From assembly GCA_015233375.1 (NCBI GenBank), contig JADFXW010000003.1, forward strand, positions 1-43,065: 43,065 nt of DNA. Direction: 5' to 3'. Origin of the DNA: Candidatus Omnitrophota bacterium. Lineage in GTDB: Bacteria > Omnitrophota > Gorgyraeia > Zapsychrales > Fredricksoniimonadaceae. The notes under the pieces were generated by a model that was not told where the DNA came from, did not search any database, and saw only the letters and a list, made by a program, of their open reading frames with translations. Below, piece after piece: positions 20,212 through 43,015 of this stretch (within the stretch, counting starts at the first letter, position 1; the number at the start of each line of letters is the position of its first letter). Position numbers and translations under genes: made by a program.

Positions 20212-20227
20212 AAGGGGTGGATATATT

Positions 20228-20268
20228 TAAGAACTCCCCCTAACCCCCTCTTTAACTAAAGAGGGGGG
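20228..20268. repeat. Hairpin repeat family A, single-hairpin copy containing the gspD SD
   Basis: AAGAACTCCCCCTAACCCCCTCTTTAACTAAAGAGGGGGG, ending 12 nt before the ATG at 20281. Confidence 0.85.
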
Positions 20269-20280
20269 AATATATTAATT

Positions 20281-22062
20281 ATGAAAAAATTTATCCATAA
20301 AATGATTGCAAAAGCACTACGGTCCCTCAGTATTTTTATTGTTATTTTTTTGTTATTGACTCCTGTGCACAGTGAAACAACAGATTCGCAAACCGTAAAA
20401 TCTACCGTTTTAGACACCCTGGAAATGAAGGACATGGACATTAATGATTGCCTGAAATTATTGGCCGCAAGGTCAGGCCTTAATATCATTGCTGGAAAAA
20501 GTATTACAGGCAGGGTCACTATTTTCTTACAAAATGTTGATGTGCGGGATGCCTTGACCATTATCCTTAAAGCCAATGACTTGGCCTTCATGGAAGCGCA
20601 TGGTGTTCTTCAGATCATGACCTCCTCAGAATATGAACAGATAACTGGCCATAAATTTGGTGTTCATATGGAAAGCACTATTGTTTCCCTTCAATCAGCG
20701 AAGGCGTCCGATGTGGCTGCTGTCCTAAACCAGATTAAAAGTGTTAATGGGAAGGTCATCCCTGACGAGGGATCAAATAGCTTGATTATTGATGATGTCC
20801 CTGAAAAAATCACTCAAATGCTCAATTATAGCCATACCCTGGACGCGCCAACCTTTGTCAGGGTTTTTAAGATCAAGCATATTGATGGTCAGGCTTTGGT
20901 TGCAAAATTACAGGAAATGGTAAGTCCTAAAATCAGTTATATTAAATTTGATTCCTTTTCCAATAAATTATTTATTAAGGATGTGGAGAAAAAATTGTTT
21001 GAAATCGAAAAATACCTTAAACAAATTGATGTGCCCATGGAAACAAAGGTTTTTAATGTTAATTACGCAAAAGCCGATGAATTAGCTAAAACCTTAGGTC
21101 CCATGCTGACTAAGGACGTGGGGAGCATTCAATATGATACACGTTCAAACACCTTGGTTGTTATCGATGTCCCTTCTAAAATGGATTCCATAACAACGAT
21201 GGTGAAAGCCCTGGATAAGGTGGATAAAGAGGTCTTTATTGAGGCGAAAATTATTCAGATTACTTTAGGTGATCAATATCAAATGGGCGTTAATTGGGAC
21301 AAGGTGATACCTAATCTTGGAAATACAAAGGTCAAATTGAGCAGCGATTTTAGTCTGCCTTCATCAAGCATTGCTCCTGGGGTTGGCAGCATGTCTATTG
21401 GAATGATGGGTAATGATACTTTTCACAATGTCTTGCAAATGTTAGATACCTTTGGCAAGTCACGCACCCTTTCAAGCCCCCAATTAGCGGTCATCAATAA
21501 TCAGGAGGCGAGCATTTTAATTGGGACCAGTGTCCCTTACGCGACCAGCACGACCACGGCCACCTCAACCACAACACCCATTACGTCGTATGCGGCGAAT
21601 TTTATTGATGTTGGTGTTAAATTACATGTAACGCCAACCATCCATGATGACGGTTATGTTACCATGAAAATAAAACCTGAAATTTCTTCTGAAGAAGCGA
21701 CCCAATATCCTGTTCCGAATAGCGGTTCAATCCCTATTGTGGATACAGATACGGTGCAGACCATTGTTCGTGTTAAGGATGGGGTGACGATTCTTTTAGG
21801 GGGATTGATGAAGGATGAGTTGAGCAACAGTAAAACTAAAATTCCTGTGTTAGGAGATATCCCATGGTTAGGAAAAGCTTTTAACACCGAGAACAGAAAT
21901 AGCCAGAAAACAGAAATTGTTATCTTTTTAACGCCGCATATTATTAATGGGGACGTGCATAGTGACCCCCAAGAATTTCTTGATAAAGAGGCAGCCATTA
22001 AAAGCCCAAAAACTTATTTCGACCCCTTACCCAAAGATGAATCTACTGTCCCTGTTCCATAA
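20281..22062 (+). CDS. gspD: Secretin (GspD/PilQ family)
   Basis: Signal peptide and N-terminal secretin_N-type repeats. C-terminal secretin core has LSSPQLAVINNQEASILIG, IPVLGDIPWLGKAF and TEIVIFLTPHII. Confidence 0.9.
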   Translation: MKKFIHKMIAKALRSLSIFIVIFLLLTPVHSETTDSQTVKSTVLDTLEMKDMDINDCLKLLAARSGLNIIAGKSITGRVTIFLQNVDVRDALTIILKANDLAFMEAHGVLQIMTSSEYEQITGHKFGVHMESTIVSLQSAKASDVAAVLNQIKSVNGKVIPDEGSNSLIIDDVPEKITQMLNYSHTLDAPTFVRVFKIKHIDGQALVAKLQEMVSPKISYIKFDSFSNKLFIKDVEKKLFEIEKYLKQIDVPMETKVFNVNYAKADELAKTLGPMLTKDVGSIQYDTRSNTLVVIDVPSKMDSITTMVKALDKVDKEVFIEAKIIQITLGDQYQMGVNWDKVIPNLGNTKVKLSSDFSLPSSSIAPGVGSMSIGMMGNDTFHNVLQMLDTFGKSRTLSSPQLAVINNQEASILIGTSVPYATSTTTATSTTTPITSYAANFIDVGVKLHVTPTIHDDGYVTMKIKPEISSEEATQYPVPNSGSIPIVDTDTVQTIVRVKDGVTILLGGLMKDELSNSKTKIPVLGDIPWLGKAFNTENRNSQKTEIVIFLTPHIINGDVHSDPQEFLDKEAAIKSPKTYFDPLPKDESTVPVP

Positions 22063-22076
22063 GGTCATCTAAAAAT

Positions 22077-23771
22077 ATGGAAAAAACACCTCTTTTTTTA
22101 GGTCAAATCCTTGTTCATCATAACATTATTAACTCAACACAGCTGGATCAAGCATTAGCTGAACAAAAAAAAACAGGTGAGTTATTAGGGCACGCATTGC
22201 TGCGTATGGGCTTTGTCAAAAAAGAACAAGCCTTTTTACCTTTATTGGCTGAAAAACTAAACGTTGAGTTAGTATTCTTAAAATCCATCGCTATTTCGCA
22301 AGAAGCTTTGAAACGTCTTTCCATCAAGGCATTAAACCATTATAAAGTTTTTCCTTTTAAATTTGAGAATGACACATTGACAGTGGCTATGTCCAAGCCT
22401 CAGGATATCGCTGTCTTGGATGACTTGAGTATGATGGCCCATGCCAGGATTAAGCCTGCCTTGGCCTCTGAGGCAGATATTATTGAAGCTATCCGTATCT
22501 ATTACGGGCTTGGGGCAGAGACCATTGAGAAAATGATGTCCGGCACTGAAATGATGGAGCAACAAACCCCGGTGATTCAGGCTATTGATGAACTTTCCTC
22601 TGAAGCTTCTATCAGCCAATTTTTAAATCAAATTTTATCTCAAGCTCATCGAGATTCAGCTACGGACATTCATATTGAGCCCTTTGGGGATGAATTACGT
22701 ATCCGTTACCGCATTGATGGAGAATTGTATGATGTTCAAGTGCCAGAAAATATTCGTTTCTTTCATGAAGCATTGATTTCTCGCATCAAGATATTGTCTA
22801 ATTTAAATATCGCTGAAAAACGCCTGCCGCAGGATGGACGTTTTAAGGTCAAGGTGTCTAATAGCGATTTGGATTTGCGTGTTTCTTTTTTACCAAGCGC
22901 TTTTGGCGAAAGCTGTGTTATCAGGCTTTTGAACACCTTTAGATTGTATGATTTTGATGATTTAGGAATTGTGGGGGATGAGCGAAAATTATTGAATATC
23001 TTAATAAATAAGCCGCATGGCATTATATTTCTGACAGGGCCTACAGGAAGCGGTAAGACAACGACGTTATATTCGTGTTTAGCACTTATCAACGCAGAAG
23101 ACACTAAAATCATCACGGTTGAGGATCCTATTGAATATCAACTCAAAGGCATCGTTCAAATCCAGGCCAATGCCAACATTGGGTTGACCTTTGCCACTGC
23201 TTTGCGTTCTATTTTACGCAATGATCCTGATGTTATCATGATAGGTGAGGTGCGAGATTTTGAAACCGCCCAGATTGCGATACAAATGTCTTTAACCGGG
23301 CATCTGGTGTTTTCTACATTACATACCAATGACGCTGTCTCAGGGATCACTCGTTTAATTGATATAGGCATTGAGCCTTATTTAATCTCAACCTCTGTGG
23401 ACTGCTTTATAGCCCAGCGATTAGTGAGATTATTATGCCCTGCGTGTAAAAGCAAAACACGCTTAACTGAAGAAATGAAAAAAGAATTTGATGTGACCAG
23501 CCAGATATCTGAAAATCATGTGATATATGAAGCCGTTGGATGTGAGGCTTGCCGGATGACAGGTTATAGCGGACGTCAGGCTATTTGTGAATTTTTAATT
23601 CTAGATGAAAAAGTTAAAGAGATGATAACACTTCGCTCAACAAGCCGGGAAATTAAACAGTATGTTGCTTCCAAAGGGATGAAGACATTAAGACAGCATG
23701 GATTAGAAAAGGTCCTTTTAGGGTTAACCAGCCCCAGTGAAGTTTTACGGGTTACTGGGGATATTGGATGA
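22077..23771 (+). CDS. gspE: Type II secretion / type IV pilus assembly ATPase (GspE/PilB family)
   Basis: N-terminal T2SSE_N/MshEN-like domain, Walker A GPTGSGKTTTLYS, Asp box, Walker B IMIGEVRD, His box, and a CxxC...CxxC zinc motif. Confidence 0.93.
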   Translation: MEKTPLFLGQILVHHNIINSTQLDQALAEQKKTGELLGHALLRMGFVKKEQAFLPLLAEKLNVELVFLKSIAISQEALKRLSIKALNHYKVFPFKFENDTLTVAMSKPQDIAVLDDLSMMAHARIKPALASEADIIEAIRIYYGLGAETIEKMMSGTEMMEQQTPVIQAIDELSSEASISQFLNQILSQAHRDSATDIHIEPFGDELRIRYRIDGELYDVQVPENIRFFHEALISRIKILSNLNIAEKRLPQDGRFKVKVSNSDLDLRVSFLPSAFGESCVIRLLNTFRLYDFDDLGIVGDERKLLNILINKPHGIIFLTGPTGSGKTTTLYSCLALINAEDTKIITVEDPIEYQLKGIVQIQANANIGLTFATALRSILRNDPDVIMIGEVRDFETAQIAIQMSLTGHLVFSTLHTNDAVSGITRLIDIGIEPYLISTSVDCFIAQRLVRLLCPACKSKTRLTEEMKKEFDVTSQISENHVIYEAVGCEACRMTGYSGRQAICEFLILDEKVKEMITLRSTSREIKQYVASKGMKTLRQHGLEKVLLGLTSPSEVLRVTGDIG

Positions 23772-23772
23772 T

Positions 23773-24990
23773 ATGCCACAATTCTCTTATAAAGCCAAGG
23801 CTGGTCCTCAAAATATAACAACTGGTTTTATTGAGGCTAATTCTGCGTCTGAAGCGGTGACAAAATTAATAAATGCAGGCAAGACACCTATTGATGTCAA
23901 ATTATCCACGATCTCAACAGGCTCCACATTAACAAAATCAAAGATTCCTAACATTAGTATCCCGCGCATGGCCTTATATCAATGGACAAGGCAATTGGCA
24001 GATTTGCAGGATGCAGGGGTCCCGTTAGCTCGATCCATGCAGTTATTGGGGCATCAGCGTCAATTTCCTGAAATGATTAAGATTATTGAGGCCATAAAGA
24101 TGGTTTTACAACAAGGTGGGAGTCTTTCAGCAGCCTTAACAGCCTATCCTCATGTTTTTCCCTCCATGTATGTTAATACAATTAAAGCAGCAGAAGCGAG
24201 CGGAAAAATGCCTTTGGTATTAAACCGATTAGCCCAGTTTCTTGAAGTGGACATGATACAAGAGTCAAAGGTCAAGTCCAGTTTACTGTATCCTGCTATC
24301 ATATTAATAGTCGGCTTTTTGACTATTTTTGTCCTTTTATCTTTTGTTTTACCACGAGTGACCTTAATGTTCGAAGATTTTGATACCCAACTTCCATTAT
24401 TAACACAAATCATCATTTCTGTGAGTCAAATATTTGCGCAGTTTTGGTGGTTAATGGCGCTTTCTGTGGCTGGGGCTATTGTTTGGATGCGTTGGTGGAT
24501 TAAAACAAATAATGGAAAAGCCCAGATGGATGCTTTCTTACTAAAAGTCCCATTATTAAAAACCTTTATTCAAAACACTCAGCTGAGCCGATTTGCGCGG
24601 ACACTGGCCATGTTATTAGAAAGTGGGGTGCCCATTGTGAATGCTCTTGAATCTGTAGTGCTTGTGGTGGATAATAAAGCGTTACAGCAAGAGGTCTATA
24701 AAATGACCGACAGGATAAAATCAGGGATGGGGCTTGCTGAGGCGGTTAAACAAAGTCCTCTTTTTCCTGAAATGACGGTTGATTTAATTGCTGTTGGTCA
24801 AGAAGCCGGGAAATTAGAAAAAGGGCTTTATAAATTAGCTGATTATAGTGAACGTCTAAGCCAGGATATGGCCCAAACTTTTACAACTATTTTAGGGCCT
24901 GCGGTTTTGGTTTTGGTTGTCGGTATAGTCGGATTTATGATTGTGGCTATGTTATTGCCTATGTTTCAGATGAATATGATCATTAAATAA
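23773..24990 (+). CDS. gspF: Type II secretion / type IV pilus platform protein (GspF/PilC family)
   Basis: Two GspF repeats and three TM helices. The ATG at 23773 lies 1 nt after the gspE stop, and the ORF-track start at 23737 overlaps gspE. Confidence 0.9.
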   Translation: MPQFSYKAKAGPQNITTGFIEANSASEAVTKLINAGKTPIDVKLSTISTGSTLTKSKIPNISIPRMALYQWTRQLADLQDAGVPLARSMQLLGHQRQFPEMIKIIEAIKMVLQQGGSLSAALTAYPHVFPSMYVNTIKAAEASGKMPLVLNRLAQFLEVDMIQESKVKSSLLYPAIILIVGFLTIFVLLSFVLPRVTLMFEDFDTQLPLLTQIIISVSQIFAQFWWLMALSVAGAIVWMRWWIKTNNGKAQMDAFLLKVPLLKTFIQNTQLSRFARTLAMLLESGVPIVNALESVVLVVDNKALQQEVYKMTDRIKSGMGLAEAVKQSPLFPEMTVDLIAVGQEAGKLEKGLYKLADYSERLSQDMAQTFTTILGPAVLVLVVGIVGFMIVAMLLPMFQMNMIIK

Positions 24991-24999
24991 GATGGTGAC

Positions 25000-25183
25000 G
25001 TTTATGGACACTTTAAAAGCTTTTTTCCGAAACGGGATATTTTTGCCGTCGTCTTCGGTTTACGACAATTGTTTTCTAAAGCATCCTTAGTATATTTAGA
25101 AAACAATTATCGTAAAGCCTTGACGACTTTTGGCAAAAAATCCCTTAATGTTTCGGAAAAAAGCTTTTAAAGTGTCCATAAAC
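25000..25183. repeat. 184-nt long palindromic element, family B, copy 2 (between gspF and gspG)
   Basis: Same length and orientation as 13200-13383, with 11 differences by hand alignment. Confidence 0.95.
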
Positions 25184-25208
25184 ACGAATCAATTGAAAGG
25201 AAATTTAT

Positions 25209-25646
25209 ATGATTAAAAATTATCGATATGGTTTTACGTTAATTGAAATAATGCTTGTTGTCATTATTATTGGCATATTGGCAGCCATGCTTGTTCCTAA
25301 TATAGCAGGGAGGAGCGACCAGGCTCGGAAAATCGCAGCCCGGACAGACATAGAGTCAAACTTGTCAACAGCGCTTGATTTATTTCATATGGATACCAGC
25401 CATTATCCAACAACAGAACAAGGGTTAAATGCCTTGTTAACAAAACCCACAGCGTCCCCAATTCCGGATCAATGGAATGGCCCTTATTTAAAGAAAAAGA
25501 AAATTTTTAAAGATCCGTGGGGACATAACTATGTGTACGTCTCTCCAGGCACGCATAATACTGAAACCTATGACCTTTCTTCCTTGGGTCCTGATGGGGT
25601 GGAAAGCAGCGATGATATTACGAATTGGGGAAATGAAGAAAAATAA
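25209..25646 (+). CDS. gspG: Major pseudopilin (GspG family)
   Basis: Prepilin leader and GFTLIEIMLVVIIIGILAAM, followed by DPWGHNYVYVSPG...YDLSSLGPDG, typical of GspG. Confidence 0.9.
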   Translation: MIKNYRYGFTLIEIMLVVIIIGILAAMLVPNIAGRSDQARKIAARTDIESNLSTALDLFHMDTSHYPTTEQGLNALLTKPTASPIPDQWNGPYLKKKKIFKDPWGHNYVYVSPGTHNTETYDLSSLGPDGVESSDDITNWGNEEK

Positions 25647-26010
25647 GACGGGTTTCATGCTTCTGGAAGCTTTGCTTTCAGTGGTGATTGTCAGCGTTTC
25701 CTTGACCTTGATAGCGGAATCTTTATTGACAAATCTAAAAACTACTGAACGTTTTCAAGAGATGACAACAGCCTTTATGGGGCTTGAAAACAGATTAGGG
25801 CTTTTATACGCAACCAATGCTTCTCCAGAAGATTTTAATCAGTATCCTAAAGATTTAGGAAAGCCATTTGGTTCAATGACAAGCCTGTCAAGGACAGAAA
25901 ACATTAATGATAATTTAAAAACAGTGGATCTTGAAATTAATTGGCCATCAGGCAAACATAAGGCAGGTTTAGACATCACCACGATGGTCTATATTCCAGA
26001 TGAAAAATAG
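25633..26010 (+). CDS. Minor pseudopilin (GspI/H-like)
   Basis: MKKNKTGFMLLEALLSVVIVSV is a prepilin-type N-terminus. The start at 25633 overlaps the gspG end. The ORF-track start at 25531 lies inside gspG. Confidence 0.65.
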   Translation: MKKNKTGFMLLEALLSVVIVSVSLTLIAESLLTNLKTTERFQEMTTAFMGLENRLGLLYATNASPEDFNQYPKDLGKPFGSMTSLSRTENINDNLKTVDLEINWPSGKHKAGLDITTMVYIPDEK

Positions 26011-26719
26011 ATTACATAGTGATGGATTTACGGTTATTGAACTTTTATTAGGTTTGACTATTGGAGCCATTATTGGTTTATGTGTATCTAATATGTTTTG
26101 GCTGGGGCTTAAACTTAATGATAAGATGCAGTATGTTCACAAAGATTACGTGTCTGAACTAAGGGTTGATGCGACCCTTTCCCGTGATTTAGAAAATGCT
26201 GTTTTTATTGATTTATCCAACAGCTACCCTGATGCTAAAATTTTTGAAGGGAACCTTACAGAATTTTCATTTTTAACGCAAACATCAACAGGATTAAAGC
26301 GTGTGCGGTATTTTACAGGATCACCAGAAGGTGTCAAAGGCTTAACATCCATGATAGGGCGGGTTGTTAATCCTTCAAACATTGATTCCAAGGGCAGACT
26401 AGATCAGGAGTCCTTGTTCCGTCAGGAAAGCAGCTTGGGGGATTGGCTTACGGGCAGCAATCAAGATACCCGCTTCCAAATTATTGCAGGGGGCTTAAAA
26501 AAACAAAGTTTCCATTGCCAGTATGCTCCTTTTGTGAAAAATCTAGATAAGAGTTCTTCCAAAGAAATAAATTATAAAGATGTGTGGGATGATAAAAAAC
26601 TACCCCTTAGCGTATCATGTGGATTTGTCTTATATAACCTTAAAAATCCGTCAGCAAGCCTGATATTTAAACGAAATTTTTTCTTAGCACCGGTAAATGC
26701 CTATTATAATGAACAATAA
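26000..26719 (+). CDS. Minor pseudopilin (GspJ-like)
   Basis: DGFTVIELLLGLTIGAIIG is a prepilin-type N-terminus. Size and position fit GspJ. Confidence 0.6.
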   Translation: MKNRLHSDGFTVIELLLGLTIGAIIGLCVSNMFWLGLKLNDKMQYVHKDYVSELRVDATLSRDLENAVFIDLSNSYPDAKIFEGNLTEFSFLTQTSTGLKRVRYFTGSPEGVKGLTSMIGRVVNPSNIDSKGRLDQESLFRQESSLGDWLTGSNQDTRFQIIAGGLKKQSFHCQYAPFVKNLDKSSSKEINYKDVWDDKKLPLSVSCGFVLYNLKNPSASLIFKRNFFLAPVNAYYNEQ

Positions 26720-27731
26720 AGGGGTTGTTTTACTTATGATATTATGGGTGTTATGCGTTTTAGCCTTGATTGCTTGGGGTTTAGGACGCCGATCATCCCA
26801 GGATATTAATTTATTAACACACTACCGGGGAAAATTGCGCAGTTATGCGGCAGCTCGGGCTGGAATCAATAAAGCGCTGGATCTTTTGCGTCAATCCAAA
26901 TCGCAGAAAGACACCTTATATACATCCGGCATTAATATAGAAATGACACAAAATCCTAAAACCTTATTTTCTCATATTGATATTGGAAAGAATGCCTATA
27001 CCTCTATTGAATGGAAGGCTCGGCATTTTAACACCACTGAACAAGATCCGATTGAATATGGGCTCAGGGATGAATCAGGCCGTATCAATATCAACGCGCT
27101 TGGCATCGCTAATTATCCTATCCTCAGCGCGCTTTTAGAACTCAAAGGGGTGACGAAAGCCCAAGCAGATCATTTGGCCCAAGCGATAATTAATTATACA
27201 GGGGGCACCAATCAAACTGGCAGTAGATCATCATTTTTGGATTTAAATGAGTCTCGTTTAAAACAAAAAAATAAGCCTTATGAAAACATCCTTGAATTGC
27301 TCCAAGTCGAAGGCATGACCCAAGAAATTTTCAATAAAATCAAGGATGATGTGACTGTTTTTGGTAACCCTCTTAATGGGGTGTGGATAAACGTCTTCAC
27401 GGCTAATAATGATGTCATTGCAGCAGTGGCGCAAGCGGCTGTTAGGCTTAACCCTTCCATTAGTCCAGAAACAATTAAAACCAAGGCCTATGCTCTTAGG
27501 GATGGGGCTGATGGACGTTCTTTTACTTTAGATGATGGGGCGGTTTCTATCAATACCATTAACAGTCCTGACTGGCCGCCTGTTTTTCAAGAAGGCCAGT
27601 CCAATTATTATAATGCAAGGGTTGTCGGTGTTGATCAAGACTCCCAAGTGCGTACTGTTTTGGAAGCGGTCATCCACTATACTCCAGGATCTAAGAGCGA
27701 GATCCTTTCATGGAAAGAGGCCGGTGAATGA
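26697..27731 (+). CDS. gspK: Minor pseudopilin GspK-like
   Basis: Hydrophobic N-terminus GVVLLMILWVLCVLALIA, GLRDESGRININAL (GspK DE..K.N.N motif), and a helix-hairpin-helix-like ILELLQVEGMTQEIFNKI. Confidence 0.7.
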   Translation: MPIIMNNKGVVLLMILWVLCVLALIAWGLGRRSSQDINLLTHYRGKLRSYAAARAGINKALDLLRQSKSQKDTLYTSGINIEMTQNPKTLFSHIDIGKNAYTSIEWKARHFNTTEQDPIEYGLRDESGRININALGIANYPILSALLELKGVTKAQADHLAQAIINYTGGTNQTGSRSSFLDLNESRLKQKNKPYENILELLQVEGMTQEIFNKIKDDVTVFGNPLNGVWINVFTANNDVIAAVAQAAVRLNPSISPETIKTKAYALRDGADGRSFTLDDGAVSINTINSPDWPPVFQEGQSNYYNARVVGVDQDSQVRTVLEAVIHYTPGSKSEILSWKEAGE

Positions 27732-29167
27732 AAACAAGCACTGTTTTTCATATCAATGAAGGAAAAATAAAATTTCTTCAGATGGCCAATGGCCATAAAA
27801 AACTTGTTACAGCGCTTGATGTGCTTGACATTGCCCAACAAGGTGATGAGGCCATCATTCAGACCTTGGTTTCTTTTCTTAAACAGAAGAAAATAAATTT
27901 CAACAATGGCCAGGTTTCGATTGTGGTTCCGCGTTCCTGGGTCATTTTAAGATTGCTTCATTTGCCATCCCACCAGGAAGATGAAATTCGTTCGATGATT
28001 GATTTGCAAATTGGAGAGTATATTCCTTACGCCAGAGAGGATGTTGAGCTTGATTTTCAGATACTTTCTAAAACACCCGACGGTTACTCTAAAGTAGCCG
28101 TGGTCATTATTCCGCAAGAAATTGCCATGCGTTATTGGACTATTTTTAATCAGGCTAAAATCCCCGTCCATCGCATGACTATTTCCTCAGTGGGTTTATG
28201 GTTATGGTACCAACAACAGCCTGGCCTTTCTGATAAACCAGCAGCGGTTTTTGATTTAGATATGAATAGCAGCGAAATATGCCTGTGTTGTAAAACTCAT
28301 ATGATGGCATCAAGAGAAATTCCCATAGGTTTTGATCAGATACAAAAAGATGGTTATGAGGAAATTTTAAAACAATGGGAATTAACTCAAAACACTATCA
28401 GTGATAAGGTGTTTGAAAAAAACACTTCTGTTTATCTGATGATGACAACGGATAAAAACAGTGGCTTAAGCAATGAGTTGAAAAGGTTAAATGAGGGATT
28501 ATTAGTCAAAGAGATATATTTAACAAAAGAATTGACCTTAAAGAAAGGCTTGCAATGGCCTCAAGCTATCATAGAAGAAGGGATATCATTAGCGGCATTA
28601 GCCGGGATTGCTTGTTGTTCAATGAATATACCTGTTGATTTAGTCCCTAAATCTATTAAGGAATCAAAAAATAAACGTTTATTGAAACGTCAGTTAATTG
28701 TTTTAAGTATTTGGTTTACAACAGGTTTAATTTCTTTAGGCTTTGCATTAGGAATGGGGTATTTTAAGAAGAATATGGAATTAGCAAGACTCGAGGAAGC
28801 CCTCGCCGAAACCAAACATGAATCAGCGTCTGTTAAGAAACAATTACAAAAAATTCATGATATTGAGGATATCATTAAAAAAAGATTGATTTTCTCAAAT
28901 TTGGTTGAAAAAATAACGCCTTTGCTTGCGCCTGAAATGTATTTGGTCAATATTTCCATCAGTGAGAAGAATACGTTGTCCTTCCAAGGGTTGACTCAAA
29001 AATCAACCGCCATTAATCAATTTCAGAGTGATTTGGTAAACACTCATGATTTTTCTGATGTAAAGCTTGAATATGTTAATAAAAGAATGACTCAACAAGG
29101 TGAAATTGATTATTTTAAGATGACGTGCATTATTAATTCCTCAGGTGATAAAAATGAAAAAACTTAA
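27728..29167 (+). CDS. PilM-like actin-fold domain fused to a TM helix and PilN-like domain (GspL-equivalent)
   Basis: The N-terminal ~300 aa are PilM-like. Then VDLVPKSIKE (PilN INLLP-like), a TM helix LIVLSIWFTTGLISLGFALGMGY and a coiled coil. Confidence 0.6.
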   Translation: MKTSTVFHINEGKIKFLQMANGHKKLVTALDVLDIAQQGDEAIIQTLVSFLKQKKINFNNGQVSIVVPRSWVILRLLHLPSHQEDEIRSMIDLQIGEYIPYAREDVELDFQILSKTPDGYSKVAVVIIPQEIAMRYWTIFNQAKIPVHRMTISSVGLWLWYQQQPGLSDKPAAVFDLDMNSSEICLCCKTHMMASREIPIGFDQIQKDGYEEILKQWELTQNTISDKVFEKNTSVYLMMTTDKNSGLSNELKRLNEGLLVKEIYLTKELTLKKGLQWPQAIIEEGISLAALAGIACCSMNIPVDLVPKSIKESKNKRLLKRQLIVLSIWFTTGLISLGFALGMGYFKKNMELARLEEALAETKHESASVKKQLQKIHDIEDIIKKRLIFSNLVEKITPLLAPEMYLVNISISEKNTLSFQGLTQKSTAINQFQSDLVNTHDFSDVKLEYVNKRMTQQGEIDYFKMTCIINSSGDKNEKT

Positions 29168-29684
29168 AAATAGTGAAACAGTCATATTAATTATTGCAGT
29201 CGTGTTATTTATTTGTTTTTTGGTCATGCAGTTTATTATTAAACCTATCCGTGAAGGAGATGTGGATATCAATGACAGGTTACGGGTTTCTAAAACGAGA
29301 TTAATCAAAGAACAGCAGACAGCGGCTCAAAAATCTTTGGTTGAATCAAGATATGAAAATTTAGTGAATCTGGTTGGGGTAGATGATTCCGAAGAGGCTC
29401 AAATGACCGTGATTGTTTCAAAGATTGAGAATTCTGCCCATGAAAGCAATGTGCATATCGCTAACATCAGGCCCTTGCCTTCTGTAAAAGAAAAAGAGGC
29501 GGTGTTCTTAAAGGTTGAGTTAGAATTAGATGGCCAATGGCTGGATATTGTTCACTTTTTAAATCTTCTTCAAGCCCAGCCCAATTTTTATTTTATCAAT
29601 GATTTGAATTTAGAAAAAAGTGCGGAAGGATCCAGTGTGTTACGCGGCGATATTGTGGTTTCGAGGATGTGTTTGGTTCATTGA
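29145..29684 (+). CDS. PilO/GspM-like secretion-system component
   Basis: Single N-terminal TM helix, a coiled coil, and a C-terminal alpha/beta domain. Last gene of the operon. Assignment rests on architecture and position only. Confidence 0.5.
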   Translation: MIKMKKLKNSETVILIIAVVLFICFLVMQFIIKPIREGDVDINDRLRVSKTRLIKEQQTAAQKSLVESRYENLVNLVGVDDSEEAQMTVIVSKIENSAHESNVHIANIRPLPSVKEKEAVFLKVELELDGQWLDIVHFLNLLQAQPNFYFINDLNLEKSAEGSSVLRGDIVVSRMCLVH

Positions 29685-34313: not shown

Positions 34314-34538
34314 ATGCCTAACATTACATTATCAATACCACAACAACTTTTAAAAGAAGGAAGGGATTATGCTAAGAAGAACAATACAACTTTAAATGCG
34401 CTTGTAAGAGACTTATTGAGTCATGTTTCTTGGAAGAGCAAAGAAGGCTGTATGAAAGATTTTTTTGCCTTGGCGGATCGTCATCCTGTTTCATCTAAGG
34501 GCAAGAAATGGAAACGTGAGGATTTGTATGATATCTAG
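34314..34538 (+). CDS. Ribbon-helix-helix (CopG/VapB-like) antitoxin
   Basis: The N-terminus ITLSIPQQLLKEGRDYAKKNNTTLNALVRDLL fits an RHH fold. Overlaps the PIN gene start by 11 nt. Confidence 0.6.
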   Translation: MPNITLSIPQQLLKEGRDYAKKNNTTLNALVRDLLSHVSWKSKEGCMKDFFALADRHPVSSKGKKWKREDLYDI

Positions 34539-34953
34539 ATATTTTATTGATACTAATATTCTTGTTTATTCTGTTGATTCCCATGACAAACACAAACAAA
34601 AAATGAGCAGGATGAAATTAATTGAACTTGAAAAAAATCGTAACGGAATTATTTCAACCCAGATTATCCAAGAATTTTATATAACATCTGTAAAAAAACT
34701 TAAAACAAACCCTGTTATTGCAAAGCAACAAGTTGAAAGATTGTCTTCTTTTGAAGTCATTGAGATCGATGTGCCTCTAATTAAAGAGGCTATTGATTTA
34801 AGCATTGTCAACCAATTTAACTTTTGGGACGCGCTGGTCATGTGTTGCGCTTTGAAATCACAATGTGATTTTTTATTGACCGAAGATTTAAGCCATGGTC
34901 AAATGATTAAAAATGTTAAGGTTGAAAATATTTTTAGGACAAGGGACTCTTAA
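34528..34953 (+). CDS. vapC: PIN-domain toxin (VapC family)
   Basis: YFIDTNILVY (first acidic residue), E in IQEFY, FWDALVMCCA and LLTEDL. The ATG at 34528 overlaps the antitoxin stop. Confidence 0.8.
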   Translation: MISRYFIDTNILVYSVDSHDKHKQKMSRMKLIELEKNRNGIISTQIIQEFYITSVKKLKTNPVIAKQQVERLSSFEVIEIDVPLIKEAIDLSIVNQFNFWDALVMCCALKSQCDFLLTEDLSHGQMIKNVKVENIFRTRDS

Positions 34954-35918: not shown

Positions 35919-36022
35919 AGGTTGATTATTATATCTAAAATAATTTGTTTTTTAAGCTAATTTTAATGAAAACTTCAAGATATGTATGTTATACTTTAGA
36001 AGCAATCATTTCAAAAGGATAC

Positions 36023-38503
36023 ATGATAAATTTATCTAAAAATCATCCTTTTTTTATCTGCATTACCGTATTCATTTTTTTATCTTTGAATATTAATCTA
36101 CCTTATCCAGCTTTTGCTCAAGACGTCTATTATCTTCCTGAACCAGGGACCATGGTCCATGTAAGCCAGGCCTTTGATTCACCTGTCTTAAAAGGTATTA
36201 AAGTTTATCCTGATAACCCTTTGCGGTTTGATTTTATTATGGATGTAGGGTCGGACTTTATGTCCGACCGAAATCATGGGCCGACACAAGGTCGGCCTCT
36301 GCGAATGGAAGCAGGCAAGCTCATCAAATATTTTCTCGCAAGCCTTACTGTTCCTGAAAAAGACCTTTGGGTTAATTTAAGTCCCTATGAGAAAAACCGC
36401 ATTATTCCTCATAGCTTTGGATTAACTCAAATGGGCCGTGACTTGTTAGGGGAAGATTATGTATTAAAACAAATCACAGCTTCGCTAATTTATCCAGAAG
36501 ATGCCATAGGTAAAAATTTTTGGAAAAGAATATATGAACAAGCAGTTATAAAATATGGAACAACGAATATTCCAGTCAACACTTTTAATAAGGTATGGAT
36601 AGTGCCAGAGAAGGCGATTGTGTATGAAAACACTAAGGCCGGGACAGCGTATGTGATGGAAAGCAAATTAAAGGTGATGCTGGAGCAGGATTATTTGGCA
36701 TTAGAGAAAACCCAGCGGCCTACCAGGGGACATGTTCAAAGCAGAACATCAAAGAACGTGTCCCCAAGCACGTTGCCAAGCGAAGTAGCATTGAATATGA
36801 AAGCGCCCCAAGGAAATCCCCGTACGCCAAACAAAGACATCAACGCTCTTGGTTCTAAAATTATCCGTGAAATCGTCATTCCACAACTAACAAAAGAGGT
36901 GAATGATAATAAAAATTTCGCCAAATTACGACAGGTGTACAATTCACTCATATTAGCTACATGGTATAAACAAAAAATTAAAGACAGTCTATTAGAAGCG
37001 GTATATGCAGATAAAAATAAAGTTGCTGGAATAGGTTATGAGAAGGGGACAGGGTCCTTGAAAGCCAGGGCCCTGTCTTCTTCAACACCTAACGATATCG
37101 AATTTATCTATCAGCGCTACCTTCAAGCCTTCAAAAAAGGCGTTTATAACTATATTAAGGAAACTCAAGACCCTGTCACAAGGCAAAATATTCCAAGAAA
37201 ATATTTCTCAGGCGGGATTAAATGGGAGATTACTCGAGCCATGGTTGTAACTCATCAATTAGATAAAAATATGAAAAGCCTGCCTAACAGGCTATATGAG
37301 GTTGAGGCTAATTTGATCATGTCTGAAGATGAGGCTATTGAAAGGGCAGGTATTGCGGTACGCAGAATTCTTCTACATGATTCAAGTCTAAGACAAACGC
37401 CGCTTGAGATACAAAATTTAAGAAGATTCTTAATAGATTGTGAAGAAGAATTGACTGATTTGCATTATCAGGAGCAGGCGGTGTTTTATTATCATAAATT
37501 GGATGAAGCGTTTCATGTGTTAATGGAGGCGCGTCCATTTGCTATTTCTTCTAAAGAGGGTAAAGCTGATCTTGAAGGATCTATGCTTGCTATTTCGCAA
37601 CTAGAGAAGTGCTTATTGATAGTTCAGGACCTGTACGAAAAATTCAAGAATGAAAATTTTCTGGATGCCAGATCCTATGAATCGTGTTTGATGTTCTTTA
37701 ATCTTATCTTAGATGGGCTTAAATCCAGCTTAGAAATTGCCCGTAGAAAGCTGTTTTCAGAAACAACAAACGTGAAAGAAGTTATTGAGGCATTTCATAA
37801 ACTTCATTCCTATGTGCGTATTATAGACAATTCACCTCAACAACCATTGATTATAAAAGGTGACTCAATGGCCTTAATATGCGCTCTTCACAATTTAGCT
37901 TATAATGCCATTTCTGCACTAAATGGAATAAAAAAGAAAGCAGAAATTGTCTTAACAGTTTCTGTGGATAGTGGAAATTTGGTTTTATCGGTTTCTGATA
38001 ACGGTCCAGGTTTTGATAATCCGCCGGTTCCTGGTCGTCCGCCAGCTCTTGATTGGGACCCTGTTACAAATAGACAACGGATATTCAATTTAAATGTTAC
38101 CTCAGGAGCAATCAGTAAAAGCACGGGCTTGGGAACTACCGAAGTGTATTATGTGGTCAAAGACCATTTTGGAGAAATAACGGCAAACAATAGACTAGAT
38201 GATCAAAATTCAATCATTGGAGCTAACTTCACTATCAGAATACCTTTATCTATTGAGGCCGTAGACACAGCTATTATAAAGAATTCCAAAGTTATTCCGC
38301 AGCAAAAGATAGATGTAAAATATGGAGGTATTGATTTAACTAATTCAAAAGTTCTAGAGACAAAAAAAGACAATAAAGGGATTAATTTTAAGTTTGATCC
38401 AATATTATTTCAGGAATGGAAGAACGCAAGAGGCTTTTCTGCGGCAGTCACAAGCGTTAAACTCATCAAAAGCGTTCAAGAATTTGTGCAAAATCCTACT
38501 TGA
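36023..38503 (+). CDS. P3: exported protein with conserved head, histidine-kinase-like (HATPase_c) payload and conserved tail
   Basis: ATG at 36023 preceded by AAGGA. Signal peptide ends AFAQ. The head closely resembles P4. Payload has an H-box-like LHDSSLRQTPL, N box LHNLAYNAISA, G1 DNGPGF and G2 TGLGT. Tail is YGGIDLTNSKVL... Confidence 0.85.
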   Translation: MINLSKNHPFFICITVFIFLSLNINLPYPAFAQDVYYLPEPGTMVHVSQAFDSPVLKGIKVYPDNPLRFDFIMDVGSDFMSDRNHGPTQGRPLRMEAGKLIKYFLASLTVPEKDLWVNLSPYEKNRIIPHSFGLTQMGRDLLGEDYVLKQITASLIYPEDAIGKNFWKRIYEQAVIKYGTTNIPVNTFNKVWIVPEKAIVYENTKAGTAYVMESKLKVMLEQDYLALEKTQRPTRGHVQSRTSKNVSPSTLPSEVALNMKAPQGNPRTPNKDINALGSKIIREIVIPQLTKEVNDNKNFAKLRQVYNSLILATWYKQKIKDSLLEAVYADKNKVAGIGYEKGTGSLKARALSSSTPNDIEFIYQRYLQAFKKGVYNYIKETQDPVTRQNIPRKYFSGGIKWEITRAMVVTHQLDKNMKSLPNRLYEVEANLIMSEDEAIERAGIAVRRILLHDSSLRQTPLEIQNLRRFLIDCEEELTDLHYQEQAVFYYHKLDEAFHVLMEARPFAISSKEGKADLEGSMLAISQLEKCLLIVQDLYEKFKNENFLDARSYESCLMFFNLILDGLKSSLEIARRKLFSETTNVKEVIEAFHKLHSYVRIIDNSPQQPLIIKGDSMALICALHNLAYNAISALNGIKKKAEIVLTVSVDSGNLVLSVSDNGPGFDNPPVPGRPPALDWDPVTNRQRIFNLNVTSGAISKSTGLGTTEVYYVVKDHFGEITANNRLDDQNSIIGANFTIRIPLSIEAVDTAIIKNSKVIPQQKIDVKYGGIDLTNSKVLETKKDNKGINFKFDPILFQEWKNARGFSAAVTSVKLIKSVQEFVQNPT
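36247..36302. repeat. Two adjacent perfect hairpins inside the P3 head (GGTCGGAC-TTTAT-GTCCGACC, plus a family D copy GGCCGAC-ACAAG-GTCGGCC), in frame
   Basis: Read directly from the sequence. Translated as VGSDFMSDRNHGPTQGRPL. The site is a length-variable loop in the four-way protein alignment. Confidence 0.75.
36726..36765. repeat. Hairpin repeat family E inside the P3 head, in frame
   Basis: GGGGACATGT...ACGTGTCCCC. The homologous site in P4 is 42288-42321. Confidence 0.6.
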
Positions 38504-38528
38504 TTTTGAATAAATCCCCATATATAAT

Positions 38529-38556
38529 ATTTCCTGTAATAAAGATTACAGGAAAT
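38529..38556. promoter_or_regulatory. Perfect 12-4-12 palindrome ATTTCCTGTAAT-AAAG-ATTACAGGAAAT between P3 and the recombinase gene
   Basis: Read directly from the sequence, 39 nt upstream of the recombinase ATG. Could be a P3 terminator hairpin, an operator or a recombinase site. Confidence 0.4.
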
Positions 38557-38594
38557 AGATAGTCTTATTTTAACCCATTGGATACAAACTCTTT

Positions 38595-39773
38595 ATGGAA
38601 CAAATCATCCCTCTTTTTAACTCTGTTGAACGCTTAGAAGCGCAATTAAAACTAGGCAAAGAATCAGGCGATTATTCTAAAGATTTAGAATTTTATATGA
38701 CCGTTGAATTCCTGCTTAGCTATAAAGGCAGCAAAGACACGGTTGCCTCCTATCGCCGTGAATTGGAAAAACTTCTTCTTTGGTCCAGGATGATATTTAA
38801 GAAACCTATAAAAAGTATTACCCGTTCAGACATTGAAGAATTTATTGAATTTTGTAAGAAACCGCCCCTTTCCTGGATTGGCTTAGAAGTGGCTGATCGT
38901 TTCATTCAACAAAATGGAAAAGAAATCCCTAACCCTAAATGGCGCCCCTTTGTGAATAAAACAGGAAATGTTTACAAGCTCTCTGATTCTGGTGTCAGGG
39001 CCCTTTTTGCTGTTTTAAACAGTTATTTTGGCTTTTTAATCCAACAAGAATACATATTTGTAAATCCGGTGGCCCTTATTAGGCAAAAAAAGAGATTTTT
39101 GCGCACAACACAAGAACTTCCAAGGATTCGTAGAATTTCTAATGTTGCCAAGGAATATTTAATAGCTGAAGCTGAAAGAATGGCGCAAGAAAACCCACAT
39201 ATTCATGAAAGAACCCTTTTTATTATTAAGGCCTTGCTAGCCATGTATCTGCGTATTTCTGAATTAACTGAAAATGACCGTTGGCAGCCTAAGATGAATG
39301 ATTTCCATAAAGACACGGATGGACGCTGGTGGTTTTATACCATTGGTAAAGGTAATAAGGAAGGGGAAATATCAGTCAGCGATCAGATGCTGGATGCCTT
39401 AAAAAGATACAGGACACATTTAGGCTTATCCCCCCTGCCTTCAATTGATGATGACTCCCCTCTTATTTTTAAATACCGTAAAGGCCATGGCGGCATCACA
39501 AGCACCAGGCAAATAAGAGGCATTGTTCAAGAATGTTTTGATAGGACGGTCAATATTTTATTGAAAGAAGGCAAGGAAGAAGACGCTCATGAATTAAGAC
39601 ACGCCACTGTCCATTGGCTAAGACACACCGGTATTTCAGAAGATATTAAAAGCGGCCGCCCCAGAGAACACGTGCGCGATGACGCCAGACACAGCTCGAG
39701 CGTCATCACAGACCGGTATATAGACGTCTCAAAAGCTGAGCGCCACGACTCTGCAAAAGATAAGAAAATATAA
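38595..39773 (+). CDS. Tyrosine recombinase / phage-integrase-family protein
   Basis: N-terminal SAM-like core-binding region. Catalytic-domain motifs are LRISEL (Arg), HWLRHTG (His-x-x-Arg), ARHSS and TDRYI (Tyr). Confidence 0.88.
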   Translation: MEQIIPLFNSVERLEAQLKLGKESGDYSKDLEFYMTVEFLLSYKGSKDTVASYRRELEKLLLWSRMIFKKPIKSITRSDIEEFIEFCKKPPLSWIGLEVADRFIQQNGKEIPNPKWRPFVNKTGNVYKLSDSGVRALFAVLNSYFGFLIQQEYIFVNPVALIRQKKRFLRTTQELPRIRRISNVAKEYLIAEAERMAQENPHIHERTLFIIKALLAMYLRISELTENDRWQPKMNDFHKDTDGRWWFYTIGKGNKEGEISVSDQMLDALKRYRTHLGLSPLPSIDDDSPLIFKYRKGHGGITSTRQIRGIVQECFDRTVNILLKEGKEEDAHELRHATVHWLRHTGISEDIKSGRPREHVRDDARHSSSVITDRYIDVSKAERHDSAKDKKI

Positions 39774-39799
39774 ACTAATACTTCAATGCATTCCATTTC

Positions 39800-42700
39800 T
39801 TATGGCTTATCTAAAAATTCACGTAAATTGCCCACTAAATGCCAGCCAGTAACCATGGGCTCAAACCCTACAGACTTCTCTAATGCCGCAAGCTGGGCTT
39901 GATTGAATTGAAGTTTTATGGCTCGGCCAGAATGCTGGATTTCCAAGAGCACCTTGCCAGCGGTCAAATCAATACCACCTTTATCCAGATCATGATGTTG
40001 GGTCATGGCAAACGAGGCCATTGCCGGCGTTTTTCCTGCAATTTTCTTAGGATCATCTGTTGAAATAAAATTTATTATGACTGTTTTTCTTGTCCCACGC
40101 TCATATCTTGCCACAATTCTTCTGTCTTCAGCGATGATGACTGTCATATCCTCATAAACAGGTAAATCCCAAAACAATATAACAGGTTTATTAGTAGGAG
40201 CCGCCCATCCAACAATCCTATGAGTTTGGTCATCATATAAAAATGTACCTGGAACAAAATACTTCAATGTATCATCAATACTATGCTCAAATTCAATAGC
40301 TGACCAGGGTAAAGTGATATCAGTTGTTCCGTCAATCCCATCCGTTTCAACATGATCGATAACATTTGCGACCTGTTTAGCTATACAATCATGGGATTGA
40401 CCACCAATGATAACAACATGTTTTCGACTACCATGCATAAACCACCGATGCATTAAAAAGCTTTCTAAATCAAAAAATTTATGATGCTCGGCTTGGAAAG
40501 TATGATTGATATTATCAAGCGCTGTTAATTTTATTTCTTCAGCGAGCTTATCCTTTGTGTTATCAAAAAACCAAGAATGCCTTTTTCGAAAATCTTTAAT
40601 ATATATTAAATGTGTCATAATAGAAGCTGGTTCAATGAACGCGGGATAGCTTGACGGATGTGTTTTAGTTTCATGATAAAAATTCACAGCATAGTCGAGC
40701 AAATATTTTGAAAACCGAATTGTTACAGTTTCTTGAAAAGAATCCAATCTTTTTCTTAGGCCTGTTAGATAATGAATATCTTTTTCTTCAATCAAATCTG
40801 GCCTTTTCTTCATGATTTCAATAAATAATATAGCAATAATCCCTTCATGTCGGTCATAAAATTCTAAATCCCTCCCAGTTTGATATCGACTAATAATTCT
40901 CACAGTGTCTGCAGTGAGAATATGACAACCTGAAGGCGATAACCTTACCATATTAGCCAATGTCAAGGTCACAATTTGAGATATTTGTCTTGTCATAAGC
41001 GTAACTATAGAATCTTGAGAAGTTCCTTGAACTTTAAAGCACAAATCGGATAGTTCCTCTAAAAGCAAAACAAAATCCCTTGATCTATACTCAGGATTTA
41101 ACGCCACCGCTGTTAACACATGTTGCAATAAATAGATACCATTCAAGTTGTCTAAATTCTGTTCAACAAATTTAATAATTTTCCTAAAAACTTCTCTGGC
41201 TTCAACTTGCTTGGCACCATACATTTCATGAACGAGAAAAACCGCTCTCTTTTTTAAAATTTCGTCTTTTTTCTCCTTTACGCTCAAGGAGCTAATTTTT
41301 TTAAGAATATACTCTATCAATTCATAATTTTGACCCATCACAGGATATGCTGTTTCAAATAATTCACCATCATCCTCTACTCCTTGTAATTGAAGGGATA
41401 AAAAATGTCTATACGCCTTGATGAATTTTTGTGTTTTGTTATCCCCTATACGCTGACTAGCCTGAGGTAAAAATTCTTCAATAAATTCATTTATCACAGC
41501 AGAGTATGGATCTATTTCAAAAACATGACTCATCACAGCCATCGTCTCTAATATAACAATTCGAATATCCTTTTCATCTAAATTAAATAACAAAAGATGT
41601 CTGGCCTGTTCAAGAATCCTTATGGATTGCGCCATTCTCACAGTAACGGGTCGAGATCGAAACTGTTGTGATTCATTCTTAAAATCTTCTATACCTATCA
41701 CCCCCAAATCGATAGGCTGATTTGATTTATCTATACTATCAGGATCTCCTGTTTTTATCGTCATGGCGGTGTTGACAATAATATTCGATGATGCCCCTGC
41801 CTTATCGATATCATGACGCAACCCCGCAGGAATATTTTCCGTATTGAAAACTGTCATTGTAGGACTCATCAGCGTGACCCCGCCTGAAAAATATTTCTTT
41901 GGCATCATCTCTTGGGTAACGGGATCGATTTCTTCTTTGATATAGTTATAAACGCCTTTCTTAAAAGCCTTTAAGTATTGCTGATAAATCTTCTCCTTCT
42001 CGTTAGGGTCATCGATATTGACACCAACGATTTTGCTCTTGTCGGCATAGTTCGAAAAGAAGATACTGTCCTTTATTTTTTTCTTGTACCATATCGCAAG
42101 AATCACGCTATTGTAAACCTGCCTAAGCGATGCAAAATTCCTATTTTCATTAACTTCCTTGGTTAATTCTGGAATAACAATTTCCCGAATAATTTTAGAG
42201 CCAAGGGCGTTGATGTCTCTGATTGGCGTACGGGGGTTTCCCTGGGGTGCTTTCATATTCAATGCTACTTCGCTTGGCCACCTGCTTGGGGACACGTCCC
42301 TAAAAAACGGGACATGTCCCCTGGTTGGCATTAGGGTTTCGCCGTGTTTAAACATCGCCACATAATCTTCTTCCAACATCACCTTTAATTTGCTTTCAAC
42401 CACATACGCTGTTTTGACCGTAGTGTTTTCATAAACAACCGCTTTCTCTGGCACTATCCATACCTTATTAAAAGTGTTGACCAGCACATCCGTTGTTCCA
42501 TATTTCTTGGCCGTTTCTTCATATATCTTTTTCCAAAACCTTTTACCTACTTCATCTTCAGGATAAATTAAAGAAGCCGTGATTTGCTTGAGGATATAGT
42601 CAAGAGCCAGGAGGTCGCGGCCCATTTGGGTTAAACCAAAAGATTGGGGGATAATACGATATTTTTCATACGGGCTTAAATTCACCCATAAATCTTTTTC

Positions 42701-43015
42701 TGGGATTGTTATACTGGCCAGAAAATATTTGATGAGTTTCGTGGCTTCGGTTTTAAGTTGTTCTTGCAAAGATTGCTTCGCTCTGCCCGCAATGACACTA
42801 GGAGAGTCACCTTTGTCTAAAATAAAATCAAAATAGAATGGGTTTTCTGGATGGACCTTGATTCCTTTAAGTATTGGTGGATTAAACGGCAGGCTTAAAT
42901 GGACCATGACACCAGGTGCCGGCAATCTATAATCATAAGCATTAACAGGCATAGGACCTATACCTGTTAACAGAAAACTTGCCAAAGTTAAAACAACTAA
43001 TGGAGACCTGAGCAT
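39800..43015 (-). CDS. P4: exported protein with conserved head, helical-repeat/unknown payload and conserved tail
   Basis: SD GAGGGGGA lies 5 nt before the ATG. Signal peptide ends VNAY. In the stretches aligned by hand the head is roughly 85-90 percent identical to P3 at the nucleotide level. The middle is helical and unassigned. Tail is KGGIDLTAGKVL... Confidence 0.85.
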   Translation of the reverse strand: MLRSPLVVLTLASFLLTGIGPMPVNAYDYRLPAPGVMVHLSLPFNPPILKGIKVHPENPFYFDFILDKGDSPSVIAGRAKQSLQEQLKTEATKLIKYFLASITIPEKDLWVNLSPYEKYRIIPQSFGLTQMGRDLLALDYILKQITASLIYPEDEVGKRFWKKIYEETAKKYGTTDVLVNTFNKVWIVPEKAVVYENTTVKTAYVVESKLKVMLEEDYVAMFKHGETLMPTRGHVPFFRDVSPSRWPSEVALNMKAPQGNPRTPIRDINALGSKIIREIVIPELTKEVNENRNFASLRQVYNSVILAIWYKKKIKDSIFFSNYADKSKIVGVNIDDPNEKEKIYQQYLKAFKKGVYNYIKEEIDPVTQEMMPKKYFSGGVTLMSPTMTVFNTENIPAGLRHDIDKAGASSNIIVNTAMTIKTGDPDSIDKSNQPIDLGVIGIEDFKNESQQFRSRPVTVRMAQSIRILEQARHLLLFNLDEKDIRIVILETMAVMSHVFEIDPYSAVINEFIEEFLPQASQRIGDNKTQKFIKAYRHFLSLQLQGVEDDGELFETAYPVMGQNYELIEYILKKISSLSVKEKKDEILKKRAVFLVHEMYGAKQVEAREVFRKIIKFVEQNLDNLNGIYLLQHVLTAVALNPEYRSRDFVLLLEELSDLCFKVQGTSQDSIVTLMTRQISQIVTLTLANMVRLSPSGCHILTADTVRIISRYQTGRDLEFYDRHEGIIAILFIEIMKKRPDLIEEKDIHYLTGLRKRLDSFQETVTIRFSKYLLDYAVNFYHETKTHPSSYPAFIEPASIMTHLIYIKDFRKRHSWFFDNTKDKLAEEIKLTALDNINHTFQAEHHKFFDLESFLMHRWFMHGSRKHVVIIGGQSHDCIAKQVANVIDHVETDGIDGTTDITLPWSAIEFEHSIDDTLKYFVPGTFLYDDQTHRIVGWAAPTNKPVILFWDLPVYEDMTVIIAEDRRIVARYERGTRKTVIINFISTDDPKKIAGKTPAMASFAMTQHHDLDKGGIDLTAGKVLLEIQHSGRAIKLQFNQAQLAALEKSVGFEPMVTGWHLVGNLREFLDKP
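42288..42321. repeat. Hairpin repeat family E inside the P4 head, in frame
   Basis: GGGGACACGTCCC-TAAAAAAC-GGGACATGTCCCC, with 13-nt arms and one mismatch. Confidence 0.65.
42768..42797 (+). repeat. Hairpin repeat family C copy inside the P4 head, in frame on the minus strand
   Basis: AAAGATTGCTTCGCTCTGCCCGCAATGACA. Translated on the minus strand as VIAGRAKQSL. Confidence 0.75.

Follow-up and report, generated by a model that had tools for sequence, protein, structure and literature searches.

The 43 kb stretch of DNA analysed here (contig JADFXW010000003.1 of a Candidatus Omnitrophota bacterium; hereafter the window) codes for a 392-residue tyrosine recombinase (38595-39773, + strand), located between two genes that we call P3 and P4. 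The 5' parts of these two genes code for related protein regions, called heads, and the recombinase had been predicted to invert the DNA between them. We propose that it is probably a XerL-type single recombinase that acts at a palindrome of its own just upstream of its gene, where it would mark the replication terminus and resolve chromosome dimers, and that it is not a head invertase. Related loci from other metagenomes are labelled L001, L002, etc.

The recombinase open reading frame (ORF) matches the Phage_integrase and SAM-like N-domain families. Its product shares 53% identity (194/368 residues, E 8e-136) with XerL of Legionella pneumophila (Lpg1867; sequence as given in PMC9765430, Table S3). 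In Legionellales, XerL alone serves as the tyrosine recombinase for chromosome dimer resolution at dif (PMC9765430). The best annotated match is the sole integrase gene of Coxiella burnetii QpH1-type plasmids, described by Nicholson, Deecker & Ensminger (2022; PMC9765430) as the C. burnetii XerL orthologue. Identity to the plasmid recombinase CBUA0010, whose N-terminus agrees with that of the C. burnetii XerL of the same paper, is 53.5% over 99% of the length. The catalytic residues are kept: Y375 aligns with the catalytic Y387 of L. pneumophila XerL, and R220, H340-x-x-R343, H366 and Y375 are invariant in 12 close relatives. NCBIfam searches returned weak, sub-threshold matches to the XerC, XerD, XerA and XerS models only, and no invertase model was matched, including those of the FimB/E type. 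On this evidence, the protein is a XerL homologue.

The palindrome is found at 38528-38557 (no strand), 25 nt past the stop codon of P3 and 38 nt ahead of the recombinase ATG. It is a perfect 13-4-13 inverted repeat, TATTTCCTGTAAT-AAAG-ATTACAGGAAATA, which can also be read in the 11-6-11 layout of dif sites as ATTTCCTGTAA-TAAAGA-TTACAGGAAAT (38529-38556), and it occurs once in the whole window. Palindromes of the same type are present 20-70 nt upstream of the recombinase gene in L003, L004, L005, L008, L009, L010, L012 and L020, some 340 nt upstream in L016 and L021, and also next to relatives that are only 37-44% identical. Between loci, the central base of the arms covaries symmetrically (CCTG/CAGG, CCAG/CTGG, CCGG/CCGG). 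The XerL dif sites are set apart from other dif sites by uninterrupted perfect arms of 10-12 bp, and in the C. burnetii plasmid a 30-nt dif adjoins xerL (PMC9765430). By its architecture, the window site is of this kind, being ~30 nt long, intergenic and AT-rich, with uninterrupted perfect arms of at least 10 bp. A promoter-like sequence, TTGATT-17-TATAAT (38500-38528, +), has its -10 hexamer abutting the palindrome, which suggests that the site may also be an operator.

We considered that the palindrome might instead be the transcription terminator of P3. The hairpin is stable (z = -3.6), yet the + strand has no T-run after it, and among related loci the palindrome is associated with the recombinase gene and not with whichever gene lies upstream. 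With at most one mismatch, the half-site TTTCCTGTAAT is found eight times in the window versus 1.6 expected. Six extra copies are scattered in coding regions without a partner arm (at 7195, 20907, 24064, 24763, 33810 and 40032); we treat them as unexplained and do not count them as sites. Two palindromes with different arm types lie 45 nt apart upstream of a single recombinase gene in L003 (9910-9972) and in L012 (2417-2479). In L003, a gene for a XerD-like protein of 316 residues (173 bits, cut-off 330) immediately precedes this pair, and a 150-residue ORF, apparently truncated, occupies the same position in L012.

The palindrome and the recombinase gene also coincide with a switch in the organisation of the window. 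The cumulative G-C count climbs for 38 kb, has a plateau maximum at 38392-39780, which spans both the palindrome and the gene, and then drops. The genes upstream of this module are almost all on the + strand, and P4, downstream of it, is on the - strand. The switch of skew and orientation falls on the module in L003, L010, L012, L016, L020 and L021; in L020, seven + ORFs precede the module, and seven - ORFs (plus one short + ORF) follow it. There is no switch in L005, it is located 1.7 kb away in L001, and none was seen in the recombinase gene subtypes of L013, L017 and L022 or in distant relatives. Since the module sits where gene orientation and GC skew change sign, it probably marks the replication terminus of this Omnitrophota chromosome. 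There, a homodimer of the recombinase would bind and cut the two identical arms and recombine two copies of the site, carried by a chromosome dimer or by an integrated element, in a mode modelled on that of the L. pneumophila and C. burnetii XerL proteins at their dif sites. P3 and P4 would then face each other across the terminus by happenstance.

The resemblance to the dif/XerL system of Legionellales (PMC9765430) extends to the recombinase, with 53% identity, a length of ~390-400 residues and an aligned catalytic Tyr, to the ~30-nt AT-rich intergenic site with uninterrupted perfect inverted arms, and perhaps to the position of that site, which here coincides with the cumulative GC-skew maximum of a 43 kb window. 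Relatives of the window locus also carry elements between an intact and a modified site, as described for the Legionella element LME-1. There are differences too. The host belongs to the Omnitrophota, not to the Legionellales, and the arms are 13 nt long with another sequence. Several related contigs have two copies of the gene, and some elements apparently carry a copy of their own. Site and gene are 38 nt apart here as compared with more than 400 kb in L. pneumophila, although the C. burnetii plasmid copy has an adjoining site (PMC9765430). The XerS/difSL systems of streptococci and lactococci and the XerH/difH systems of Helicobacter and Campylobacter similarly combine a single recombinase with a neighbouring dif in a terminus module (PMC9765430). 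However, they belong to different Xer clades (the NCBIfam XerS model gives an E value of 0.0016, far below the cut-off), and their dif sites have only partial dyad symmetry, in contrast with the perfect palindrome of the window.

Homologues of the recombinase number in the thousands. A small group, 74-83% identical, comes from Omnitrophota-like contigs, and a very large one, at 50-57% identity, is labelled Gammaproteobacteria, which suggests from sequence comparison that the XerL family reaches well past the Legionellales. The labels of the 50-57% homologues include SAR86, Pseudohongiellaceae, Pseudomonadales and other Gammaproteobacteria. A scan of a genome collection with the recombinase returned two gammaproteobacterial loci only, a sequence search of the PDB gave no match, and the exact protein is not on record. 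The search for XerL in PMC9765430 covered the Legionellales only, and its authors considered XerL restricted to that order; in the searchable literature, all the work that we found on XerL concerns Legionellales. For Omnitrophota, a module of the XerL/dif type with a gene-adjacent site would thus be new for XerL but of a known system type. The window would extend XerL/dif to this phylum, provide a directly testable pair of recombinase and site, and offer a terminus marker for Omnitrophota genome assemblies.

Two other origins were considered for the recombinase and rejected. A typical phage integrase was ruled out, with three weak loci in viral contigs and at most 27% identity in the phage collection. 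A tRNA-linked integrase was ruled out as well: the window contains no tRNA or tmRNA, and in the 48 related loci scanned one tmRNA adjoins a recombinase gene, that of L059, whose product is 45% identical. The window (43 kb) contains no other recombinase.

Several observations weigh against a role in chromosome dimer resolution at the terminus. To the right of the module, the window has only 3.3 kb with one gene, and the skew switch is inseparable from the orientation of P4. The arms do not resemble a candidate site that we located by eye beside C. burnetii xerL. Thousands of gammaproteobacterial proteins are 50-57% identical to the recombinase, which implies horizontal transfer. Moreover, two copies of the recombinase gene are present within 6-7 kb in L001, L002 and L005, the subtypes of L013, L017 and L022 are embedded in co-directional blocks with cargo, and the neighbours are often toxin-antitoxin or defence genes. 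Gene pairs, co-directional blocks and such neighbours agree better with mobile elements than with a single housekeeping locus.

Relatives of the locus provide evidence of natural exchange at the site. Between L003 and L004, identity is 100% over the stretch that starts at the palindrome's left edge and includes the recombinase gene, and their upstream sequences are unrelated. An exact 18-mer, AATGTTATTACAGGAAAT, in which a 6-nt spacer separates a degenerate arm from a perfect arm of the window type, was found in four independent loci among the 0.9 Mb of sequence retrieved (L003 15379-15396, L010 6568-6585, L016 7050-7067 and L001 9309-9326, the last on the - strand). It lies downstream of the recombinase gene by 35 nt in L016, 650 nt in L010 and 4.2 kb in L003, where it bounds zero, one and three minus-strand cargo genes, respectively; in L001 and L002, it is inverted and upstream. 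A palindrome of the window type also directly precedes the unit in L003 and L012, where it is perfect, and in L010, where it is degenerate. LME-1 leaves an intact and a modified copy at the Legionella dif site (PMC9765430), and this intact-plus-modified pattern is seen in L003, L010 and L016. The cargo and neighbouring genes of the relatives, of toxin-antitoxin and defence types, code for HigA, ParE/Phd, a retron-type reverse transcriptase, a PHP/AAA_21 protein, RmuC and a DUF4238 protein. These relatives seem to be islands resembling integrative mobile elements exploiting Xer (IMEX) and carrying their own xerL variant. Like LME-1, the gonococcal genetic island and the CTX phage, which integrate at dif and thereby give rise to an intact and a degenerate site, L003, L010 and L016 have sites of both kinds. 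Unlike classical IMEXs, which borrow the Xer proteins of their host, the inserted units here seem to bring a xerL-like gene and a variant palindrome of their own.

A second recombinase subtype (L013, L015, L024, L032, L068 and L001 3394-5138) has no palindrome upstream; a conserved ORF of 182 residues overlaps the start of the recombinase gene, which lies within co-directional blocks. In L022 (359-4451), three ORFs of ~400 residues follow in a row after the recombinase match, of which only the first matches the query; they could represent a multi-recombinase element.

By analogy with the islands, the window recombinase might be the integrase or resolvase of a small IMEX-like element that is made up of the palindrome, the recombinase gene and, as cargo on the minus strand, P4, and that ends on the right past the contig. 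P3 would then be a chromosomal neighbour, and the inverted arrangement of P3 and P4 a by-product of insertion. We find this unlikely, even though several features agree with it. In relatives, the order is the same, with palindrome, recombinase gene on the + strand, cargo on the - strand and modified site, the cargo ranging from 0 to 4.2 kb and comprising defence or toxin-antitoxin genes. A minus-strand head-family gene lies between two recombinase copies in L005, as P4 might here, and the paired gene copies of L001, L002 and L005 are also as expected of mobile units. L003 and L004 have the element in common but not the left flank. In addition, P4 has an orphan payload (see below), and the contig breaks 50 nt beyond it. 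However, both 13-nt arms of the window palindrome are perfect, as expected of an unoccupied site and not of a hybrid junction, no modified second site was found in the 3.3 kb to the right of the module, and the module coincides with the switch of skew and orientation in most related loci of the window's subtype. The window itself has one intact site only, the contig stopping past P4. A chromosomal dimer-resolution system, as opposed to an island, is favoured by the perfection of both arms of the site and by the recurrence of the skew switch. Both explanations have a XerL-type recombinase acting at its own palindrome and not at the heads.

The two might be reconciled, although we lean against it, if this Omnitrophota lineage resolved chromosome dimers by means of a XerL module gained by horizontal transfer, with dif just ahead of xerL and doubling as an operator, the terminus serving as a landing pad for islands with their own xerL variant and a co-varying palindrome. 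Those islands might, just as tentatively, also bring defence, toxin-antitoxin or head-family genes such as P4. If so, the terminus would be a point of cassette exchange for the repertoire of secreted proteins, and the site illustrates how accessory genes may enter at the terminus.

We then turn to the heads. The ORF coordinates agree with the original prediction in that P3 and P4 are convergent, with the recombinase gene between their 3' ends. The P3 ORF spans 35945-38503 (+), its start being most likely the ATG at 36023, as assumed before, and P4 spans 39800-43015 (-). The head-coding regions (36110-37264, + strand, in P3; 41756-42940, - strand, in P4) do form inverted repeats. They contain two gap-free blocks far beyond chance, of 392 nt (36308-36699/42357-42748, 78% identity) and 274 nt (36756-37029/42024-42297, 76%), and blastn aligns the two heads with 76% identity over 681 nt (E 5e-144). 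The mismatches counted by hand were exact, with 14/120 between 36575-36694 and 42362-42481 and 5/75 between 36756-36830 and 42223-42297. The description of the heads as highly similar holds locally, in one tract; over 419 aligned codons, they are only 66% identical in DNA and 63% in protein.

Across most of the head, identity at third-codon positions between P3 and P4 is 0.35-0.45, even where the proteins are 85-90% identical, and it climbs to 0.65-0.89 at about 36480-36870. In that stretch, the codon is the same at 76 of 93 identical residues, and in the flanks at 66 of 146 (Fisher p = 2e-8). A scan statistic without preset boundaries selected 36497-36844 (348 nt), with 69/79 identical codons at identical residues as compared with 59% overall, a score reached by none of 20,000 permutations. 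The sharp rise expected of a conversion tract is thus present. Its counterpart in P4 is at 42209-42559 (-), the DNA identity of the tract is 82%, and the longest exact matches between the heads, of 38 nt (36575-36612/42444-42481) and 30 nt (36775-36804/42249-42278), both fall inside it. The raised identity is specific to this pair: the other five pairings among P1-P4, P1 and P2 being paralogues in the same window, as well as two heads from other metagenomes, are near saturation there, and third-codon positions are near saturation in every family pair except P3/P4. Since the rise is confined to P3 and P4, and other paralogue pairs are saturated at third positions in the same segment, constraint at the DNA level was ruled out as its source. 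Outside the tract, P3 ranks only 21st among 35 family heads by similarity to P4, behind many heads from other metagenomes. P3 and P4 are therefore old paralogues between which an exchange of ~350 nt took place by homologous gene conversion. As the tract itself is 18% diverged, this happened long ago; the suggestion of gene conversion is supported, but for a past event. The heads of L003 and L005, from different metagenomes, also have local tracts with a third-position identity of 0.77-0.86, and mosaic exchange among family heads seems common.

It is improbable, in our view, that RecA-dependent exchange between the heads still occurs occasionally, causing gene conversion and rare inversion of the recombinase segment without involvement of the enzyme. 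In its favour, RecA-mediated exchange in Escherichia coli requires a minimal length close to that of the 38-nt and 30-nt exact matches, the conversion tract peculiar to the P3/P4 pair is statistically clear, and the heads of L003 and L005 form a second mosaic pair. Nevertheless, the 18% divergence of the tract indicates an old event, and outside it the heads are 66% identical.

The original prediction, a recombinase acting inside the head repeats so as to invert ~5 kb and swap payload-plus-tail cassettes between two expression sites, is very improbable. The geometry permits it, with inverted, in-frame repeats around a tyrosine recombinase gene as in the shufflons of IncI plasmids (Rci/sfx) and in inverting hsdS and surface-protein systems, and exact matches of 38 and 30 nt are present. 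Those matches, however, belong to the P3/P4-specific conversion tract, and the enzyme is of the XerL family, not of the Rci or FimB/E type, with a cognate palindrome outside the heads. A search of the heads for conserved inverted core sites found none: the best match to the 22 specified bases of a XerL-type site has seven mismatches, which is what shuffled head sequence gives. Unlike what would be expected of sfx-type sites, no DNA core is common to the heads of P1-P4, L003 and L005. Actively inverting repeats in Rci/sfx and hsdS systems are near-identical, as compared with 66% for the head repeats. Shufflons have a short conserved sfx core per cassette, a single expression site and silent 3' cassettes, none of which is present here. 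Neither gene is a silent cassette, since both P3 and P4 are complete and have a start and a signal peptide of their own, and little would be gained by a swap between complete expression units. The architecture is not recurrent either. In tblastn searches with the four heads and tails, none of ~25 loci with a 73-83% identical recombinase had the recombinase gene between inverted head genes. Most of these loci have no head or tail gene; L003/L012 and L010 have one upstream, on the same strand as the recombinase gene, and the minus-strand gene of L005 lies between recombinase copies. Tempting though it is to see here a programmed switch that shuffles the secreted proteins of a phylum of uncultured predators or symbionts, this indirect evidence does not support one, which helps to avoid a misannotation.

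P1-P4 are members of a large family of modular, secreted proteins that is specific to Omnitrophota. All four have a signal peptide, a head of ~400 residues that ends in RKYFSGG, a payload that differs from one to the next and a conserved tail of ~60 residues that starts with GGID(L/F), GGIDL in P3. The payloads are glycogen-synthase-like in P1 (4115-8629, +), FHA in P2 (29797-34167, +) and HATPase_c in P3; that of P4 is unrecognisable. The head matched no Pfam family, and its AlphaFold model (pLDDT 72) gave no PDB match with an E value below 0.001. Relatives of the head number at least 1278, those with a named source being labelled Omnitrophica or Omnitrophota almost without exception. Their payload types vary widely and include HAD, methyltransferase, HEAT, protein kinase and HD. 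The P4 payload had no Pfam match, and the payload plus tail (39800-41815, residues 400-1071) matched only itself among 5.8 billion proteins. P4 combines an orphan payload with a common head.

The remaining genes of the window are chromosomal and code for seryl-tRNA synthetase, lipid A and lipopolysaccharide core enzymes and a type II secretion-like operon. That operon (gspC, D, E, F, G and K-like; 19732-29684) stops 113 nt before P2, and the head-family proteins may be its substrates. In a preprint on large Omnitrophota proteins (West-Roberts et al. 2023, 10.1101/2023.11.21.568195), a locus resembling a type II secretion system before such proteins is noted as a layout, and P2, directly after the gspC-to-K-like operon, has the same position. 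The HATPase_c, HAD, methyltransferase and HEAT payloads overlap with those of the 'Dockerin-type' proteins described there. Unlike the giant proteins of the preprint, however, the members of the window family are 0.8-1.5 thousand residues long, and the combination of a ~400-residue head and a ~60-residue tail was not found in the sections that we searched (10.1101/2023.11.21.568195). Finally, between P2 and dus, 3.6 kb from the recombinase gene, a PIN-domain toxin gene and a small overlapping upstream ORF (34314-34953) likely form a toxin-antitoxin pair.

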